From Somniosus microcephalus (Eukaryota): a DNA stretch of 64,000 nucleotides. Below, piece by piece: positions 7,280 through 61,260 of the stretch (the first letter of the stretch is position 1; each line of letters begins with the position of its first letter). The position numbers and the translations under genes were made by a program. Below the pieces are notes generated by a model that saw only the letters and a program-made list of their open reading frames with translations, was not told the origin of the DNA and made no database searches. The stretch lies in NCBI GenBank assembly GCA_052327205.1, contig CM126216.1, positions 89,280,001 to 89,344,000 on the forward strand, in the 5' to 3' direction.

Positions 7280-7739
7280 AATGAGAGGATCATCAGGGCG
7301 AGAGAGAGAGAGAGACAGCCTCTGAACTGGAAGGTGGGGGGTGGTGGGTTGTGGAAGGGAGATATGAGCTGTCTGCCTTGGTGAAGGAGAGCGTGACTAT
7401 TCAAATATTGTTTGATGCTTTAGTTCATTCGCTAAATATGGACAAACCCAAGTGTGACATTTTCTTATGAATTTTAAATATGTATCAATTACAAAGTTAA
7501 AATGTATCTAAAGTTACCCAGAATGACTGTTTTTAATATATATTTTTAAAATCATGGGAGCATTCGCTCATCTTCTGACTTTAAAGTGTAACTAGGCTCA
7601 GCCAGTTTCTCATGCAAAACAGTCCAATTGTTCCTGCTATTTAGGCTCCTCAGGTCCCGCTGAGCAGATTTACAGAAGTTCAAGTTTACTCCTGGAGCTC
7701 AGCAAAGCCAACCCAGCCCCATTTATATAATGAGCCGAC

Positions 7740-10700
7740 TAGTGAGGGTGATGACACCTTGGCGGAGTGCAGTCCAGCGCACATCCACGGCACTGTGGGG
7801 AAAATGACTGCACAGGGGGGTGCAGTAAAGTGTAGAAATGCAGTGGTCATATGGGATTCGATAGTCAGGGGGATAGACAAGTGTTTCTGCAACCGCCGAC
7901 ATGATGTGTTGCCTCTATGGTGCCAGGGTAAAAAGACATCACTGAGAGAGAGTGCAGAACATTTTGAGGGGGGGGGGGGGAGAAGGAGGGGAACAGCCAG
8001 AAGTCGTGGTCCATCTGGGAACCAATGGCATAAGAAAGAAAAGGGTTAAAGACCTGCAGCCAGAGTTTCAGGAGCTAGGGAGGGAGTTAAAAGACAGGAC
8101 CTCAAAAAGGTTGTAACCTCTGGATTACCCCCAGTGCCACGCACTGGTGTGTATAGGAATAGTAGGATAAAACAGGTTCATGCGTAGCTGGAGAAATGGT
8201 GCAGGAGGGAGTGCTCCAGATTCTTAGGGCATTGGGACCAGTTCTGGGGCAGGAGGGACTTGTTCAAGGTTGACAAGTTGCACTTCAACAGAGCTGGGAC
8301 CAATGTCCTTGCGGGAAGGTTAACTAGCACTACGGGAGGAGGGTTTAAACTAATTTGGCAGGGGGTGGGCACCAGGATGAAGCATTAGAGTGGGGAAACA
8401 AGGTGCATAGAGACGACTGGGAGAGGCAAATAGCACTAGAGTAACGAATAGTTCAAAAATAGGCGGGATCAAATGCGAGGCAGTCTCAGATGGGTTTGGA
8501 GTGCATGTACGTAAATGCATGGAGCATGGTAAATAAGGTTGGTGAGCTGCAGGCGCAAGTCACCACATGGGACAATGATATAGTGGCAATAACAGTGGTC
8601 ATAATAACCAGCTTTAAAATAGTTATGAAAAAGGACAAGCATAAAAAATACTTAACTGGAGGAGAGCTAACTTCAGTGAGTTGAAAAGGGATCTTGTGCA
8701 GGTGGATCAGAGTAAAAAATTGGTAGGCAAAACAGTAATTGCACAATGGGGGGCCTTCAAAGAGGAGATGGTTCACGTACAGAGTAGATACATTCCTGAG
8801 GGGGAAAGGGAGGGCATCCAAAGCTAGAGCTCCCTGGATGACTGAAGATATAGAGATTAAAATGAAACAGAAAAAAAGAGGCTTATGACAACTGTAAGAT
8901 TAATAATATAGTGGAGAACCAAACTGAATATAAAAAGTACAGAGGAGATCTAAAAAGGGGAATAAGAGGGGCAAAGAGAGAATAGATTAGTGGCGAACGT
9001 AAAAGGGAACTTAAAGTCTTTTATAAACAAATAAATAGTAGAAGGGTAGTCAACGGAAGTGTGGGGCCAATTAGGAACCAAAAAAGGAGATCTTCTCGTG
9101 GAGGCAGAGGGCATGGCTGAGGTACTAAATGAGTACTTTGTATCTTTCTTCACTAAAGAGGATGCTACCAGTGTAGCATTAAAGGAGGAGGCAGTAGTGA
9201 TATTGGATAGGATAAAAGAGAATGTATTAAAAGGTTGGTAGAAAAGTCACCCGGTCCAGATAGGATGTATGCTCGGTTACTGAGGGAAGTAAGGATGGAA
9301 AATGCAGAGGCTCGGGCCACAATCTTCCAATCCTCCTTGAATATCGGGGTGGTGTCAGAGGACTGGAGGATTGCAAATGTTACACCCTGTTTAAAAAAGG
9401 GGGAGAGGGATAAACCTGACAATTACAGGCCAGTCAGCCTAATGTCAGTGGTGGGGAAACTTTTAGAGACAATAATCAGGGAGAACATTATTTGGAAAAC
9501 TATGGGCTAATAAATGAAAGTCTGCACGGATCTGTTAAAGGCAAATCATGTTTAACTAACTTGATTGAGTTCTTTGATGAAGTAATGAAGAGGATTGATG
9601 AGGTTAGTGTGGTTGATGTTCTGTGTATGGACTTTCAAAAGTCATTCGACAAAGTATCACATAATAGACTGGTTAGCAAAATTAAAGCCCATGGGATTAA
9701 AGGGACAGTGGCAGCATGGATACAAAATTGGCTAAGGGACAGAAAGCAGAGAGTAGCGGTGAATGGTTGTTTTTCAGACTGGAGGGAAGTATACAGTGGT
9801 GTTCCCCAGGGGTCGGTGTTGGGACCACTGTTCTTTTTGATATATATTAATGACCTGTACTTGGGTATACAGGGCATAATTTCAAAGTTTGCAGATGATA
9901 CGAAACTCAGAAATGCAGTAAACAATGAGAAGGATAGTAATAGACTTCAAGAGGACATAGATGAAATAGGCAGACACATGGCAGATGAAATTTAACACAG
10001 AAGTGTGAGGTGGTACATTTTGGTAGGAAGAATGAGGAGAGGCAATATAAACTAAATGATGCAATCTTAAAGGGGGTACAGGAACAGAGACACCTGGGGG
10101 TGTATGTACTCAAATCTTTGAAGGTGGCAGGACAAGCTGAGAAGTCTTGTTAAAAAAGCATATGAGATCCTTGGCTTTATTAATAGAGACAGAGTACACA
10201 AGCAAGAAAGTTATAAAACACTGGTTAGGCCTCAGCTGGGGTAGTGTGCTCAATTCTGGGGCACCACACTTTAGGAAGGATGTCAAGGCCTTGGAGAGGG
10301 TGGAGAGGAGATTTACTAGAATGTTACCTGGGATGAGGGACTTCAGTTACGTCAAAAGACTGGAGAAGCTGGTGTTGTTCTCCTTAGAGCAGAAAAGGTT
10401 AAGAGTAAATTTGATAAAGATGTTCAAAATCATGAATGGTTTTGATCGAGTAAATAAGGAGAAACTGTTCTCAGTAGCAGATTGGTTGGTAACTAGAGGA
10501 TAGAGATTTAAGCTGATTTGGCAAAAGAAACAGAGGACATGAGGAAACTTTTTCACACAGCTTGTTGTTGTGATCTGGAATGTACTGCCTGAAAAGGGTG
10601 GTGGAAGCAGATTCAGTAGTAACTTTCAAAAGGGACTCAGATAACTCCTTGAAGGGAAAAACATGATAGGACTTTGGGGAAAGAGCAGGCGACTGGGATT

Positions 10701-10777
10701 AATTGGATAGCTCTACCAAAGAGCCGGCACTGGCACCATGGGTCGAATTGCTTCCTTCTTGTGCCATTCTGTGATTC
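7740..10777 (+). mobile_element. Decayed near-full-length CR1 LINE in ALX4 intron 1
   Basis: ORF1 esterase remnant (AVVIWDSIVRGID). Fragmented ORF2 (YVNAWS, KSPGPD, YRPVSL, GVPQGSVLGP, FADD, PHFRKDV) with many frameshifts. CR1 3' tail ending attctgtgattc. Confidence 0.92.
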
Positions 10778-13700
10778 GAATAGTGAAGCTCCTGAACGTT
10801 TTCCATTAAAATCGCATTTTTAATTAAACAGCAACTTAGTGCCTTGCCTGGACGAATGTTGAACTTCGTTTATAAAACCGCATTATGTAAACAAGTATTA
10901 CTTCGTTCGGAGGGAAACTTCTATTTCTGATTAGCAAATACAACTCAGTCCGGAGTCATGGAACGCTATCATTTGCCATTTTTTAAATCTGTATGTGCGT
11001 GTGATTTCATGGACGAAGGTGCATCATTGGTATATAAACTACAGAGAACCCGAGAACATCAACGACTGTTACCTACTGGCGTATCATATCCCTCAGTGCC
11101 CATCCATGGGTTTGTGTAACTATAAGCAAATATAGTAACAAGACTATAGCAAATAAATGTAATGTGCTTTATCTATTTCTGTTCTGCTTTCTCCTCTTCT
11201 GTGCACTTTAAAAACATCTCTGCCGACAATAGCGGACACATCTGTTACCCGTACGCGAGGTGCAGGTCCCTGTCCTCTCTGAAGGCTGACATGAATCGGT
11301 GCGACGTGGTTCGCGCTGCCATTTGTTGCGCACATGCGAAATGGTGCGTGCCACCGCTGGGAAACCAGCCCCGTCTGACACCAAACATCTGCATTAAAGC
11401 CAGGGGGGCTCGACAGGGAAGAGCTCACAATTCCAAATGAAACTGTAAGAACAAAGAACGCGCCGTGGGCAGTTAATCCTCCCGATTATAAAATATAATT
11501 CAATCATGTCATCTAATGGGATTTTGTCTTGTGAAACATGAAGCCATTAAAAAAATCCGTGCATCTACTTAGAGTTATCGTTATAAACCAGGATTTTTAA
11601 AAATTCTCTCTTTAGTGCTCCGATCACAACGCATCTGGAGTGCCGAGGACAGTGCTAGCCACCGCAACACATAAACCATCCAGGCGCTCGAAATTGGGAA
11701 GCGAGCAATGAGATTGACCCGAGTGTTAGGGGATGAACTATGAAGAATAAAGTAGAGGCAGTGCAGAAAGGACCATGTAGAGGCATATAACGGGAGAGGG
11801 AAGGTCAACCCAGCACAGTATTTCTGGATATACTAGGCAGGAGGATAAACGGACACTCGTTCAAGGTCGTGAGGACATGTTAGCGCAGAAAATATTTATT
11901 TACACAGACGGTGCTCAACAGCTGAAGCAGGTTGGCGGTTGAGTCCAGGACACTGAAGTCACACACATATATAAAAAAACAGCTAAATGGTGTAATGGGA
12001 AAATGGTAGGATTGGTATTCTGATCAAATGGGTCAAATAATCTTTATCTCAATCTGTCTTGCAATCGATACATTACAATCGTTTTCTGGTTGGTACATGG
12101 TATGTTTCCAATGGTATGAAAGCTAATCCAAATTAAACTGTGATACGTCCCAGTAAGCGTCTGGGTACATTGCAGTTATACTGTCCCTCTGATGTGCCGA
12201 TTATTCTTTTGGCACTCTGAAAGCCGTTGCTTATTTGGTGAAGAACTGGACGCCGGCACTAGGGGGTAAGATTAAGGTGTGAAATTAAAGAAAAAGTTCA
12301 TCTTAGTTGTTGACATTTCTGGAAAGCGTTACAAAATGTACACAATTAAAACCTATTTGTCAATGTTTAAAATAACAATGTACAAAGCTATCCCCTTACC
12401 ACATTGTAATGCAAAGTGGAGTGTAACAACGAGAGAGAGAGCTCAGGAACAGGCTTTGCCCCCAACACCCGCCCCCCACCTCCCCAAAGAGAGAAAACTA
12501 CTGTCACATGCCGGATTTTGGTTCGGGCGCATCCTAAGTCACGACACAGGATGGGCAGCCAGTGTACTGCTCTACATCTGAAACCAGACAAATATACTGC
12601 AGCCTGGGTGCGACCGCTGGGGTTAAAACCAGTGCTGTGACTCCTCCCGCTATCATATGCTCAGCAGTCAGGTTCCTGATCCTGGCTTTATACTACCACA
12701 TTTGCATGAATACAAATTCTTTATGCACACACAAAAGTGACAGTGTAGGTTAGTTATACTGCAAACGTTTGCGTCAGGGCAACGCAGTTTGGGGCTAGCA
12801 CTGATGCAAAAGTGGGAGCATAACTCGTGCTGTTAGATCAGCAATCTGTCTCCCAAGTGCATTCAGGGTGCATTTACGGTGCGCAAAGCGAATGGAGAGT
12901 GAATTGCTCTCGAGTTTGCTGGTGTGGAGTTTACTGCCTCTTCCGAGCCCACTCTCGGTTCCTCTTTGCAAAGCTTAATCGACAACCACGGCGTCGTTAC
13001 AGTCCAGGGCTGTGCGGCAAAATGAAATGCCAACTTGGAACCCAAAGAGCTCCAGATTGCGCATGAACTGGGGAGAGGATCTGCAGTTGGGGCTTGAAAG
13101 CTCTGGCTGCTGGAGATTTCAAGTTCCCAATGCATTGGGGAGCCAACTGACTAGGACTCCATATTTAGGCTCCAATTTTCGCGTCAAAAGACACGCTAAC
13201 GTTATTGTAGCACACCCTTACGCCAGAGGTGTTGGTTCATCCGACAGGTAGTATCGCGCGCCACTTGCGGTTTGCACTATGACTCTGAACCAAGCCATAT
13301 TTCAGTGTGCCCAGGTGATTCACTGGACCGCGTGGGAACTCTGTAAACTCGTGTGAGAAGAGATTGGCTGCTTCTGTTTTAACTCTCTTACATGGAAAAA
13401 AATAGCCAACAGGGAGTGCAGATAAGCTGACTGAGGGCCAGTCAGCATTATAACTCGGGTCTGCCAGCAGCACAGTGCACGCCATAGGTATCAGTCTGAG
13501 ACCTTTAACTATAGTACAACAGCCAAGAAAGCCCTGCTTCTGTAAATAGGAATTAGACAGTGTCCCGGTATGTACATTAAAAAAATCACACCTGCAGAAT
13601 TTTAAACCTATGGAATAGAGGAAAGATGTTACTGAACAGGAAAGGCGTACCGTTTAGGTTATACAACACGGCTTAACTTGAAAGACCAGAACAGGACGCA

Positions 13701-56074: not shown

Positions 56075-56964
56075 AATATGTTGGTTTACCGTCTGTCTGC
56101 TTTTGAACTAGATAGTTGTGGGGGGTTTTTTTGGGGGGGGGGGGGGGTCTGTCCTGTAAATTTGATAATCAAAAACAGGACAGAAAAAAAATCCATTTTC
56201 AATTGCTGCCTGAATGCAGGAGCGTGTTCTCTGGTTTCCTGAACGCGCACAGCATTTAGGTTTCAATAATGGCTTCTCATCCGTATATCCAGAACCCTGT
56301 CCCCCATAAACCTGGTTTTAGACCAGGAAAATGTGGCCTAACATGTAAGCTGAAGCTCTACAGGTGAACAGAATGTTCCTTTCTAAACTAGGCACCCTCA
56401 AGTTAGCAGGCTTTGAGTCAACAGCATTCAATTTATTCTTGCTTGAGAAACTAAAACCTGTTTTTATTCTTTGACTTTAAAAATGGCTCTGTAACATGCA
56501 ATCCAAGTCAGAAGCAACTATCCTCCCCCAAGACTTCAACAAACTTTAAAGCCCTGGAATCCTCTGACAAGATCATTCACTTTTCTTCTCTGCTGACAAA
56601 ACTCAGACCAGGGGTTCTGTCACATCAGAATACATTTCTGTTCATCACATAATAAACTCATAGTGTAACAGCTGTTAAAAGCTCTAAGTTAATGAGAATG
56701 ATCATTTCAAGGGAAGATTTGTGCTAGTGCATATATTTAGACTATCATCCAATTGTTAATTAGAAGTATGAGTGCACGGTTTAGTCTGTTAAAGCAAATA
56801 AAACTGATTTTTAAGTTACAATTTAGAAGCACATACATGGATATGGTTAGTTTAAAAAGGAATAAGAGGAGTACAGTATACATTGGTCTAAGTAAGCTTC
56901 GGGAAAACAAAAGTCGATAAATAAACTAAAACTAGAAAATTAAAAGTAATATAAGGGTTAAGTC

Positions 56965-57912
56965 ATGGCAGTAGAGCTCGGACCTGTGTCATGCTCCTCC
57001 TGTAACATGTGGGAAATCAGGGACGCTTCCTGTGTCCCTGACGACTATGTGTGCAGGAAGTGTGTCCAGCTGCAGCTCATGTGGGACCGCATGACGGCCC
57101 TTGAGCTGCAGGTGGACTCACTTTGGAGCATCCACGATTCTGAGAGGGGTGTGGATAGCACATTTAGTGAGTTGGTCACACCGCAGGTTAAGGCCAGCGT
57201 AGACAGTACATGGGTGACCAAAAGGCAGAGCAAGGGCAGGAAGGTAGTGCAGAAATCCCCTGGGGTTGTCTCCCTTAGCAACAGGTTCACCGCCTTAGGT
57301 ACTGTTGTCGGGGGGGGTGACACATCGGGGGAAGGCACCAGCAGCCAGGCTCATGGCACCATGACTGGCTCTGTTGCAAAGAAGGGAGGGAAAAAGAGTG
57401 GCAGGGCTATAGTAATAGGGGATTCGATTGTAAGGGGAATAGATAGGGGTTTCTGTGGTCGCGACCGAGACTCCAGGATGGTATGTTGCCTCCCTGGTGC
57501 AAGGGTCAAGGATGTCTCGGCGCGGGTGCAGAACATTCTGGAGGGGGAGGGGGAACAGCCAGTTGTCGTGATACATGTTGGTACCAACGACGTAGCTAAA
57601 AAAAGGGAAGAGGTCCTACAAGTAGAATTTAGGGAGTTAGGAGCCAAACTAAAAAGTAGGACCTCGAAGGTAGTAATCTCGGGATTACTACCAGTGCCAC
57701 GTGCTAGTAAGAGTACAGAGAACAGGATAGTTAGGCTAAATACGTGGCTTGAGCAGTGGTGTAAGAGGGAGGGTTTTAAATTTTTGAGGCATTGGAACCA
57801 GTTTTGTGGTAGGTGTGACCTATACAAAAGGGACGGTCTACACCTGTGCAGAGATGGAACTGATGTTCTCGGGGTAATTTTTGATAAAGCAGTTCGGGAG
57901 CATTTAAACTAG
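56965..57912 (+). CDS. CR1 ORF1p: CxxC..CxxC zinc finger, leucine-zipper-like region and SGNH esterase domain (315 aa)
   Basis: CSSC-x16-CRKC at the N-terminus. SGNH blocks IGDSIVR, PGA, HVGTND and DGLH are all intact. Confidence 0.93.
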   Translation: MAVELGPVSCSSCNMWEIRDASCVPDDYVCRKCVQLQLMWDRMTALELQVDSLWSIHDSERGVDSTFSELVTPQVKASVDSTWVTKRQSKGRKVVQKSPGVVSLSNRFTALGTVVGGGDTSGEGTSSQAHGTMTGSVAKKGGKKSGRAIVIGDSIVRGIDRGFCGRDRDSRMVCCLPGARVKDVSARVQNILEGEGEQPVVVIHVGTNDVAKKREEVLQVEFRELGAKLKSRTSKVVISGLLPVPRASKSTENRIVRLNTWLEQWCKREGFKFLRHWNQFCGRCDLYKRDGLHLCRDGTDVLGVIFDKAVREHLN

Positions 57913-60854
57913 TATGGCAGGGGGCTAGAAACCTATGTAGTGAAATAGAGGAAAGTGAAAGGCAGACAGAAATAAATGATAAAAGGGTGAGGAACAAAAA
58001 ACAAAGGGCCAAACTAATTCATAAAAAATGTGAGCATAAAAAAAGCCTGAGGGTTTTATACCTTAATGCGAGAAGCATCAGGAACAAGGTAGATGAATTA
58101 GCTGTGGAAATAGAGGTTAATAATTATGATCTAATTGGGATTACGGAAACATGGTTGCAGGGTGAGCAGGGCTGGGAGCTTAACATACAGGGGTATTCAG
58201 TATTTAGGAAGGATCGACAAAAAAGAAAGGGAGGAGGGGTAGCATTGCTAGTAAAAGAGGGGATAAATGCAATTGAAAGGAAGGATATTAACTCAGTTAA
58301 TACAGAATCTATATGGGTGGAGCTAAGAAATAGCGAGGGGCGAAAAACATTAATAGGAGTGGTATATAGGCCTCCAAATAGTAAAATAGAGGTTAGGGAG
58401 GGCATCACGAGGGAAATTAGAGAAGCGTGCAATAAGAGCACAGCTGTCATCATAGGTGACTTTAACTTACATATAGATTGGACTAGCCTAATCAGTAAAA
58501 ATAATGAGGAGGAGGAATTCCTTGAGTGTTTGAGGGATGGTTATCTGGATCAATATGTCGAGGAACCAACTCGGGAACAGGCTATATTGGACTGGGTACT
58601 GTGCAATGAGAAGGGACTAATCAGTAATCTTGTTGTACGGGGACCCTTGGGTCAGAGCGATCATAACATGATCGATTTCTCACTCGAAATGGAGAGCGAA
58701 GAAATTGACTCAGAGACTAAGGTCCTGAATTTAAACAAGGGGAATTATGATGCCATGAGACGGGAACTGAGTAGGTCTGAGTGGACAACGTTCCTGGGAG
58801 GACTGGAGGTAGATAAACAATGGCAAACATTTAAAGATAGAATGACAAAATTGCAAAAATTGTTTATACCAATCTGGCATAAAAGGAAATCTAAAAAGGT
58901 GACTCAACCGTGGATAACAGGGGAAATTAGAGACAGCATAAAATCCAAAGATAGGGCGTATAAAATAGCCAAAAAAAGCGCCAGAGCGGAAGATTGGGAA
59001 CAGTTTAAGATAGAGCAAAGGAGGGCAAAGGGCATAATCAAGAGGGGCAAAATAGCTTACGAAAACAAGCTGGCGGAAAATATAAAAACTAACTCCAAAA
59101 GCTTTTATAAGTATATCAAAAGGAAAAGACTGGTGAAAACCAAAGTTGGTCCATTGCAGTCAGATACGGGGGAATATATAATGGGAAATAAGGAAATGGC
59201 AGATCAACTAAATGCATACTTTGGGTCAGTCTTTACGAAGGAAGACACAAAAAACCTCCCTGGGATATCGGGAAAAATAGGGACATTGGCAAAGGAGGAA
59301 CTGACGCAAATCAATATCTCTAAGGATATGGTGTTAAGGAAGCTAAAGGGATTGAAGGTGGACAAATCCCCAGGGCCTGATAACATGCATCCTAGGGTAC
59401 TGAAGGAGGTGGCCCTAGAGATAGCGGATGCACTAAGGATGATTTTTCAGAATTCATTAGACTCGGGAACAGTACCGATGGATTGGAGGGTAGCTAACGT
59501 TACCCCACTATTCAAAAAGGGGGGTAGGGAAAAAGCAGGTAATTACAGACCTGTAAGCCTTACATCAGTTGTGGGCAAAATGCTGGAGTCCATCATTAAG
59601 GATGAAATAGCGGAGCACTTAGCAAATGGGGACAGGATAGGACAGAGTCAACATGGATTTACAAAGGGTAAATCGTGCTTGACTAATCTATTGGAATTTT
59701 TTGAGGGAGTAACTGGTAGAATAGATGGGGGAGAGCCAGTAGATGTGGTGTACCTGGACTTCCAAAAGGCCTTCGATAAGGTCCCACATAAAAGATTAGC
59801 ATGGAAAATTGAGGCTCATGGGATAAAGGGGAAAGTTTTGGCGTGGATAGGGAACTGGCTGTCAGATAGAAAACAGAGAGTTGGAATAAACGGCTCATTT
59901 TCTGAATGGCAGGCAGTAACAAGTGGGGTACCACAGGGATCTGTCCTGGGCCCCCAGCTGTTCACAATTTACATTAATGACCTGGATCAGGGAGTCGGAT
60001 GCAGCATTTCCAAATTTGCAGACGACACTAAACTAGGAGGGGGGGTGGGCTCAGAGGAAGAGACCAGGAAGCTCCAGAGCGATTTGGACAGACTGGGCGA
60101 TTGGGCGGATAAATGGCAGATGCACTATAATGTGGACAAGTGCGAAGTTATCCACCTTGGGTGCAGGAACGGGAGGGCAAATTATTATTTAAATGGCAAT
60201 AGATTGGGAGAGGGGGAAGTACAGAGAGACCTGGGTGTTCTTGTACACCAGTCACTGAAGGCGAGCATGCAGGTGCAACAGGCGGTCAAGAAGGCAAACG
60301 GTATGCTGGCCTTCATAGCAAAAGGGTTAGAATACAGGAACAGGGATACCTTGCTGCAGCTGTACAGGGCACTGGTGAGACCACACCTCGAGTACTGTGT
60401 ACAGTTTTGGTCGCCTCATCTGAGGAAGGATGTTCTTGCCATGGAGGGGGTGCAGCGGCGATTCACCAGGCTGATACCAGGAATGGCGGGAATGACCTAT
60501 GAGGAGAGACTATGTAGTTTAGGGATGTACACACTGGAGTTTAGAAGATTGAGAGGGGACCTCATAGAAGTGTATAAAATTCTGACAGGTCTAGACAGAC
60601 TGGATGCAGAAGGAATGTTTCCCTTGGCGGGTGAGAACAGAACTAGAGGACATAATTTAAGGATAAGGGCTAAACCATTTAGGACAGAGATGAGGGGGAA
60701 TTTCTTCACTCAGAGAGTGGTGAACCTGTGGAACTCATTGCCACAGAGGGCAGTGTACGCCAGCTCATTAAATATATTTAAGAGGGAATTAGATATATTT
60801 CTACGGGCAAAAGGGGTTAAGGGTTACGGAGAGAAGGCGGGGACGGGATACTGA
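57888..60854 (+). CDS. CR1 ORF2p: APE-type endonuclease plus reverse transcriptase (stop-to-stop open frame; no AUG until 58668)
   Basis: APE motifs YLNARS, ITETWL, VYRPP, GDFN and SDHN. RT motifs YRPVSLTS, QHGF, DFQKAFD, GVPQGSVLGP and FADD. The frame opens after TAA at 57885-57887. The 'start' at 57987 in the ORF track is a GTG. Confidence 0.95.
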   Translation, partial: SSSGAFKLVWQGARNLCSEIEESERQTEINDKRVRNKKQRAKLIHKKCEHKKSLRVLYLNARSIRNKVDELAVEIEVNNYDLIGITETWLQGEQGWELNIQGYSVFRKDRQKRKGGGVALLVKEGINAIERKDINSVNTESIWVELRNSEGRKTLIGVVYRPPNSKIEVREGITREIREACNKSTAVIIGDFNLHIDWTSLISKNNEEEEFLECLRDGYLDQYVEEPTREQAILDWVLCNEKGLISNLVVRGPLGQSDHNMIDFSLEMESEEIDSETKVLNLNKGNYDAMRRELSRSEWTTFLGGLEVDKQWQTFKDRMTKLQKLFIPIWHKRKSKKVTQPWITGEIRDSIKSKDRAYKIAKKSARAEDWEQFKIEQRRAKGIIKRGKIAYENKLAENIKTNSKSFYKYIKRKRLVKTKVGPLQSDTGEYIMGNKEMADQLNAYFGSVFTKEDTKNLPGISGKIGTLAKEELTQINISKDMVLRKLKGLKVDKSPGPDNMHPRVLKEVALEIADALRMIFQNSLDSGTVPMDWRVANVTPLFKKGGREKAGNYRPVSLTSVVGKMLESIIKDEIAEHLANGDRIGQSQHGFTKGKSCLTNLLEFFEGVTGRIDGGEPVDVVYLDFQKAFDKVPHKRLAWKIEAHGIKGKVLAWIGNWLSDRKQRVGINGSFSEWQAVTSGVPQGSVLGPQLFTIYINDLDQGVGCSISKFADDTKLGGGVGSEEETRKLQSDLDRLGDWADKWQMHYNVDKCEVIHLGCRNGRANYYLNGNRLGEGEVQRDLGVLVHQSLKASMQVQQAVKKANGMLAFIAKGLEYRNRDTLLQLYRALVRPHLEYCVQFWSPHLRKDVLAMEGVQRRFTRLIPGMAGMTYEERLCSLGMYTLEFRRLRGDLIEVYKILTGLDRLDAEGMFPLAGENRTRGHNLRIRAKPFRTEMRGNFFTQRVVNLWNSLPQRAVYASSLNIFKRELDIFLRAKGVKGYGEKAGTGY

Positions 60855-61025
60855 ATTAAAGGATCAGCCATGATCTCATCGAATGGCGGAGCAGGCACGA
60901 AGGGCCGAATGGCCTACTCCTGCTCCTATCTTCTATGTATCTATGATATCAGTGAAACCCATTAATTGGCTATCCTACATTTAAGAGATGTCACTCATTC
61001 TAACGGAAAGAAGATCTTTGCAAAA

Positions 61026-61260
61026 TGTGGTAAACCACTGTTTGTATTCCTGTTTGTCCTGTTTGTATTCCACTGTGTACATGCCTGGACATGCCTCGGC
61101 TGACTCCTCCCACAGGTCCTAGTATAAAGGTGACTGCTCCCCAGCCCTTCGTATCCTGGACCGGTCGACCACTCGAGGCAGACCTCCATTCTGTTGTTAA
61201 TAAAAGCCTTTAGTTACTCTTCTAACTCTCAGTCTTTTATGAGTAATTGATAGCGCATCA
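61026..61260 (+). mobile_element. Solo LTR (235 bp)
   Basis: TG...CA termini, 5-bp TSD CAAAA (61021-61025, 61261-61265), TATAAA at 61123, AATAAA at 61199. Confidence 0.8.

Follow-up and report, generated by a model that had tools for sequence, protein, structure and literature searches.

How does a long interspersed nuclear element (LINE) express its polymerase when the second open reading frame (ORF2) offers no start codon ahead of its first enzymatic domain? The question is raised by a CR1 LINE copy in a 64,000-nucleotide stretch of the Somniosus microcephalus genome (assembly GCA_052327205.1, contig CM126216.1, forward-strand positions 89,280,001 to 89,344,000), the whole of which is called the window here. 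The translation of LINE ORF2 has been called an open question (PMC3894237). We conclude that CR1 LINEs with an esterase-type ORF1 very probably make their predicted APE endonuclease and reverse transcriptase (RT) by programmed −1 ribosomal frameshifting on U_UUA_AAC, giving an ORF1–ORF2 fusion. This interpretation was put forward in an original prediction made from the letters of the window alone; comparative data support it, the product itself being a predicted one.

The copy extends from approximately 56844 to 60945 on the forward strand, on which its parts described below also lie, its ends being placed by comparison with other copies and, on the 3′ side, by the loose ends of reads at 60945. 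The original prediction described the element as intact, and both ORFs are indeed open, but the 5′ untranslated region is truncated at ∼56844, 21 other copies extending further 5′ by up to ∼570 nt in pairwise comparison. ORF1 (56965–57912, ATG to TAG, 315 aa) carries a CxxC-x16-CxxC zinc finger and an SGNH esterase (PF13472, aa 150–298), and its profile matches PDB 4c1b, the LINE ORF1 esterase structure (zebrafish ZfL2-1), with E = 8.7e-40; its closest named homologs are shark and ray proteins. The −1 frame is open from 57888 to 60854 (988 codons) and contains the APE domain at 58047–58664 (PF03372, codons 60–259, LRVLYLNARS at 58047) and the RT domain at 59523–60155 (PF00078, codons 546–756). 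Both ORFs thus have the domains that define an esterase-type CR1. The junction matches, by eye, published shark and ray sequences labelled LINE/CR1, and the tree that we built covers the ORF1 esterase only. The 4c1b element and CR1 subgroup 7, which is described as esterase-type with an ORF1 of type IVB (PMC4120745), share this arrangement of a zinc finger and SGNH esterase in ORF1 and APE and RT in ORF2.

ORF1 ends with CAT TTA AAC TAG (H-L-N-stop), placing the heptamer T_TTA_AAC (57903–57909) in the X_XXY_YYZ register with the stop codon (57910–57912) immediately 3′ of it. A TAA at 57885–57887 closes the −1 frame five codons 5′ of the heptamer and so bounds the window of entry. From the junction to the endonuclease, the linker (57909–58046) has neither stop nor AUG in the −1 frame; its first near-cognate codon is the GTG at 57987 (codon 27), and the first in-frame ATG (58668–58670, codon 261) lies 3′ of the endonuclease. 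The eight ATGs between 57850 and 58100 are all out of frame and open only short frames. Joined conceptually, ORF1 and ORF2 give 1296 aa. The register, the open −1 frame, the late ATG, the GTG and a fusion of about this length had all been predicted, and all held on the sequence. Since ORF1 has three in-register canonical heptamers in 315 codons (ORF2 has five), a terminal position would be a coincidence of ∼1% for a single copy, and the case is carried by comparative data.

The family that carries the window copy is very young, and the junction is the state of an active family rather than a product of decay. A pattern in which six heptamer bases were left free matched the junction of 1,541 copies in the host genome, and each of the first 100 matches listed reads TTTAAAC; at least 40 copies are 100% identical across the junction. 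In 60 fetched copies, which were the best matches (99.4–100% identical), TTTAAACTAG was present without exception. The frame stays open for at least 260 codons in 57 of these, with the first Met 254–255 codons from the junction and after the endonuclease, while three stop earlier. An AUG ahead of the endonuclease, which the original prediction had named as counter-evidence, was found in none of the 60. Because the family spread so recently, its endonuclease must be made without an AUG. We rejected an assembly error or decay as the source of the junction, given the 1,541 copies, the at least 40 identical ones and the 60 of 60 that share it.

The heptamer is conserved beyond what the encoded protein needs. 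A codon alignment was made with 12 representatives (eight shark and four 'amniote-type', with L184 dropped for an upstream indel), and an ungapped profile, including 24 nt upstream, with 13; the representatives are related, so that the counts below are not independent. The term 'amniote-type' is used since the best-fitting query groups with alligator, snake and monitor ORF1s. Throughout the profile (13/13), TTTAAACTA is invariant, as is the GGG 11–13 nt past the heptamer, and the ORF1 stop is TAA or TAG. In the window copy this GGG is 57920–57922, the start of a run of five (57920–57924, 11–15 nt past the heptamer) whose last two G are kept in 12 of 13. Among the 17 alignment columns with an invariant residue, two are Trp, 13 use two to four codons, and the remaining two, the terminal Leu and Asn, are each confined to one codon (TTA and AAC, respectively), against backgrounds of 15% for TTA and 34% for AAC. 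The codon before the Leu encodes His, Asp, Gly, Ala, Cys or Ser, and its third base is T in every case. Four-fold sites are 64% identical within sharks and 34% (216/644) between shark and amniote-type copies. Free variation of the Leu and Asn codons, a further counter-sign named beforehand, was therefore not seen.

The same holds in other CR1 families of the shark genome. A pattern for Leu (or Phe)-Asn-stop plus a downstream motif, with codons and wobble base left free, found 39,483 sites (control, 2), of which 36,749 read exactly TTTAAAC. Since this pattern presupposes the ORF1 end, loci were also retrieved by upstream esterase features only. Retrieval with the DGLHL motif gave the exact heptamer before the first stop in 20 of 30 loci, the remaining 10 being single substitutions, indels or rearranged; retrieval with a second-subgroup protein gave 22 exact of 30, three TTTAAAT, two rearranged and three not located. 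No family with other Leu/Asn codons was found among these 60 junction-blind shark loci. Once duplicates had been removed, 102 of 141 loci had a junction that could be located. The modal distance from junction to endonuclease was 201, 192, 144, 129, 165, 159 and 195 nt in the seven families with at least three copies, and 150 nt in the window copy's family. All eight lengths are multiples of three and keep the −1 frame, which would have a probability of (1/3)^8 if they were free and independent, but the families are related. Among single old copies and clusters of two, most were out of frame or could not be located, as decay predicts; neither group was counted. Linkers that have no AUG are also free of stops, as only 1–6% of shuffles are (four representatives). 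In all nine shark representatives the −1 frame is closed exactly five codons 5′ of the heptamer, with no start codon between, despite differing ORF1 residues; in amniote-type copies the stop lies 2 or 37 codons upstream. The stop at five codons in sharks may remove ribosomes that shift early. Elsewhere in the window, an older, decayed CR1 of another family (7700–10780) has TTTAAAC-TAA at its junction (8344–8353) and a G-rich motif downstream. A 1001-codon open frame (L240) was rejected as an ORF1–ORF2 fusion; it is a 5′-truncated copy in frame inside the RT-like ORF of another element.

Outside sharks, scanning of metagenome data with N-terminal esterase motifs gave 48 loci, to which one weak genome-contig locus was added. 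The ORF1 end was reached in 19 of the 49, with TTTAAAC in 12, decayed variants in four, a cut before the junction in two and a different lineage in one (L093); scans of viral contigs gave no matches. The supplement of PMC13343379, searched by motif within the first 400 characters per sequence and thus informative on range rather than frequency, has the motif at the ORF1 end in cartilaginous fish (elephant shark, stingray, sawfish, catshark, dogfish), bony fish (bowfin, halosaur, coelacanth) and tetrapods (bullfrog, alligator, crocodile, bearded dragon). Within the same text, three synonymous heptamer variants match non-CR1 rows only. In one published lizard CR1 the ORF1 stop is TGA. Judged from these sequences, the site is real and conserved across jawed vertebrates.

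Some individual sequences are noted separately. The supplement row AldAff_Crack-2 bears the label Crack but shares the junction and the esterase end of ORF1; it may be a CR1. In L093 (2600–2956), a distant esterase LINE, ORF2 overlaps ORF1 by ∼80 nt in the −1 frame; an imperfect G_TTA_AAC stands at 2642, ten codons ahead of where ORF1 stops, and an in-frame Met follows further on. Protein P0009, a record named as an SGNH hydrolase of Pseudomonas aeruginosa, shares 57% identity with the window ORF1 and ends in L-N; it is probably host DNA in a bacterial assembly. Four ray or sawfish gene models (P0026, P0056, P0099 and P0036; RPS24, TMEM204 and ABHD14A-like) contain CR1 ORF1 sequence, and P0036 runs from ORF1 through F-K-L into the endonuclease.

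At the protein level, 150 representatives clustered at 50% identity include 57 ORF1s that end in L-N, 10 in G-N and three in K-N; in distant, unnamed ORF1s the end is Q-G-N or S-K-N. Among 142 distinct Asn ends, the residue before L-N can be encoded with a final T in 106 of 107, that before G-N with a final G in 19 of 19, and that before K-N with a final A in five of five; 11 fit none of these classes. At this level, the three ends appear to match U_UUA_AAC, G_GGA_AAC and A_AAA_AAC, which are named among the most shifty heptamers, the first being the coronavirus 1a/1b site of IBV (PMC5009743). An Atlas search for the G-N group returned SGNH clusters only. Teleost L2-type esterases, unlike those of CR1, end without L-N in the esterase tree, which was built by a quick method from 85 hand-picked rows. 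Four other unnamed ORF1s (P0219, P0222, P0230 and P0248) have R/S/T-K-N just past the esterase helix, 10–13 residues before the stop; this type is compatible with A_AAA_AAC without an adjacent stop, and six of 22 such proteins have any candidate.

The stimulator is the weak step of the mechanism. The heptamer in register, the open downstream frame and conservation beyond coding need are all present, but the stem-loop or pseudoknot 5–9 nt downstream that a canonical −1 signal has was not found. Folding of the downstream region was no better than that of shuffles (z-scores of −2.0 to +1.6 in 14 representatives, ∼0 for the window copy's family), in line with the original remark that no convincing downstream pseudoknot could be seen. 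A G-quadruplex is predicted in five of the 14, the window copy's family not among them. A hairpin just 5′ of the heptamer in the window copy was discarded (z = −0.6, not significant, not conserved). The adjacent stop and the G run, already named as possible stimulators in the original prediction, are both conserved, and on comparative grounds are the only conserved candidates for this role. In pea enation mosaic virus, a stop codon three bases past the shift site is reported to be important (PMC5009743).

Several points tell against frameshifting or its wider extension, in addition to the relatedness of the representatives. No conserved stem or pseudoknot was found by folding against shuffles and a stem scan, without a dedicated pseudoknot program, and no long-range duplex partner is shared, the best partners differing between families. 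A second in-register TTTAAAC lies within ORF2 at 58730, so the signal must consist of more than the heptamer. Viral contigs supplied no DNA for the G-N or K-N classes, and a search of the host genome with one short query found no ORF1 of the G-N type. In the esterase tree, both classes belong to a single unnamed clade, and 21 of its 40 rows have other endings. Unconventional reinitiation has been proposed for L1 ORF2 (PMC5972666). Lastly, the linker contains an in-frame AUG in five of eight shark families (in one of these, in five of nine open copies) and in all five open amniote-type copies, four of which have it at codon 3, two bases past the stop. Reinitiation is thus possible in those elements.

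By that route, ribosomes that have terminated at the end of ORF1 would resume translation in the −1 frame from an AUG or near-cognate codon close by, the conserved bases being part of a restart signal. Besides the AUG close to the stop in the amniote-type copies, and at codon 6 in one shark family, this reading can draw on the precedent of SART1, where it is established, and of L1, and on the lack of an identified frameshift stimulator. However, three shark families, the window copy's included, have no AUG before the endonuclease, and in the window copy the GTG at codon 27 is the first near-cognate codon. The original statement that ordinary AUG initiation cannot yield a functional ORF2 protein stands for the window copy's family, but not for the several other CR1 families with a linker AUG. 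A start codon at or near the stop in the ORF2 frame, the mark of reinitiation, is likewise absent from the window copy's family and present in some amniote-type copies. Moreover, the candidate starts lie at unrelated positions from family to family (codons 3, 6, 13, 15, 18, 21 and 42 across all families), and reinitiation leaves unexplained both the wobble T and the frame kept from heptamer to first AUG in eight of eight families. We consider it unlikely as the explanation of the junction, but it may operate beside frameshifting in some CR1 families.

A different constraint on the same bases, whether from the C-terminus of the ORF1 protein, from dual coding of the F-K-L of an ORF2 that starts upstream or from an RNA- or DNA-binding motif, is very unlikely. 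The L-N end is invariant in vertebrate CR1 ORF1 proteins and overlapping frames can freeze codons, but protein need could not hold the third base constant across the codons of six different amino acids, and the L2-type esterases of teleosts do without L-N. An upstream start is opposed by the −1 frame being closed five codons upstream with no start between in nine of nine shark representatives, and any such constraint still leaves ORF2 without an entry.

RNA from the junction is colinear with the DNA. In two raw RNA-seq runs of a close relative, of which about one quarter to one third each was covered, the junction at depths of ∼75 and ∼100 had no indel, substitution or joint at a threshold of 1% and three reads. 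The reads come from both strands and many copies, which excludes a common spliced or edited form and stops short of proving a full-length sense mRNA. Correction of the frame in RNA by splicing, editing or polymerase slippage is thus extremely improbable: a CAG|G past the stop resembles a 3′ splice site and a rare isoform could escape detection in such mixed reads, but the unspliced junction is present in all 60 sampled retroposed copies, and polymerase slippage needs runs longer than three bases.

Slippage on the heptamer we infer from its register, the adjacent stop, the open −1 frame without AUG, the conservation and the colinear RNA. Most ribosomes would terminate at the UAG and release ORF1p. 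In a minority, tRNA-Leu would re-pair with UUU in place of UUA, and tRNA-Asn with AAA in place of AAC, and translation would continue as ...EHLN-LVWQGAR.... The resulting 1296-aa fusion of zinc finger, esterase, APE and RT would be made in a low, fixed proportion, in gag-pol style. The pause would, more speculatively, come from slow termination at the adjacent stop together with the G run, which would lie close to the channel where mRNA enters and may be bound by a protein; it is assigned to these because no RNA structure was found.

Such a scheme resembles retroviral gag-pol and coronavirus ORF1a/1b in the heptamer, its register, the −1 overlap and the order of a structural protein upstream and polymerase downstream, but differs in that no pseudoknot or stem was found, the stop is directly adjacent and the element is non-LTR. 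The arterivirus nsp2 frameshift, stimulated by nsp1-beta and PCBP, is a possible analogy in that a short homopolymer-rich motif replaces RNA structure. The arterivirus motif is C-rich and lies ∼10 nt downstream of the shift site, whereas that of CR1 is G-rich and has no identified trans factor. Among non-LTR elements, the routes described for ORF2 include stop-start at UAAUG in SART1 and 2A skipping (PMC3708506, PMC3894237). SART1 and L1 share with CR1 a bicistronic LINE RNA and low ORF2 output, but make a separate ORF2p, while the window copy's CR1 family has no AUG near the stop. The original remark that frameshifting is atypical of studied LINEs fits these two, but a review legend states that translation of ORF2 in Dictyostelium TRE5-A and TRE3-A requires a −1 frameshift (PMC5911963). 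The corresponding statement does not appear in the part of PMC5006619 covered. Like CR1, these are APE-type non-LTR elements, although their ORF1 is unrelated and their host amoebal.

Past the LINE, a short stretch at 61040–61230 has TATA-like and AATAAA motifs by eye and could be an LTR-like fragment.

In the literature searched there was no report of −1 frameshifting in CR1; the 1997 papers on turtle and chicken CR1, Repbase notes and supplements may mention the overlap. The covered part of a large frameshifting review does not contain 'CR1', and in the portions of PMC13343379, PMC2734521 and PMC4120745 consulted, neither 'frameshift' nor 'overlap' is used in connection with the junction.

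CR1-group elements are described as the dominant retrotransposons in most vertebrates (PMC13343379). More tentatively, and as a proposal that we would not quite call probable, this LINE clade, dominant in most vertebrates, may have made its polymerase as a −1 frameshift fusion since before the split of sharks and bony vertebrates; the structure-free signal of heptamer, adjacent stop and G run may be a stimulator of a new type; and in related lineages the three heptamers most prone to slippage may have replaced one another. The signal spans 30 nt and makes the question of LINE ORF2 translation directly testable. If frameshifting is confirmed, the working CR1 enzyme would be a gag-pol-like fusion tethered to ORF1p, Met-initiated annotations of CR1 ORF2 would be wrong for many families, and a frameshift signal that lacks any obvious RNA structure would be present in vertebrate genomes in tens of thousands of copies.

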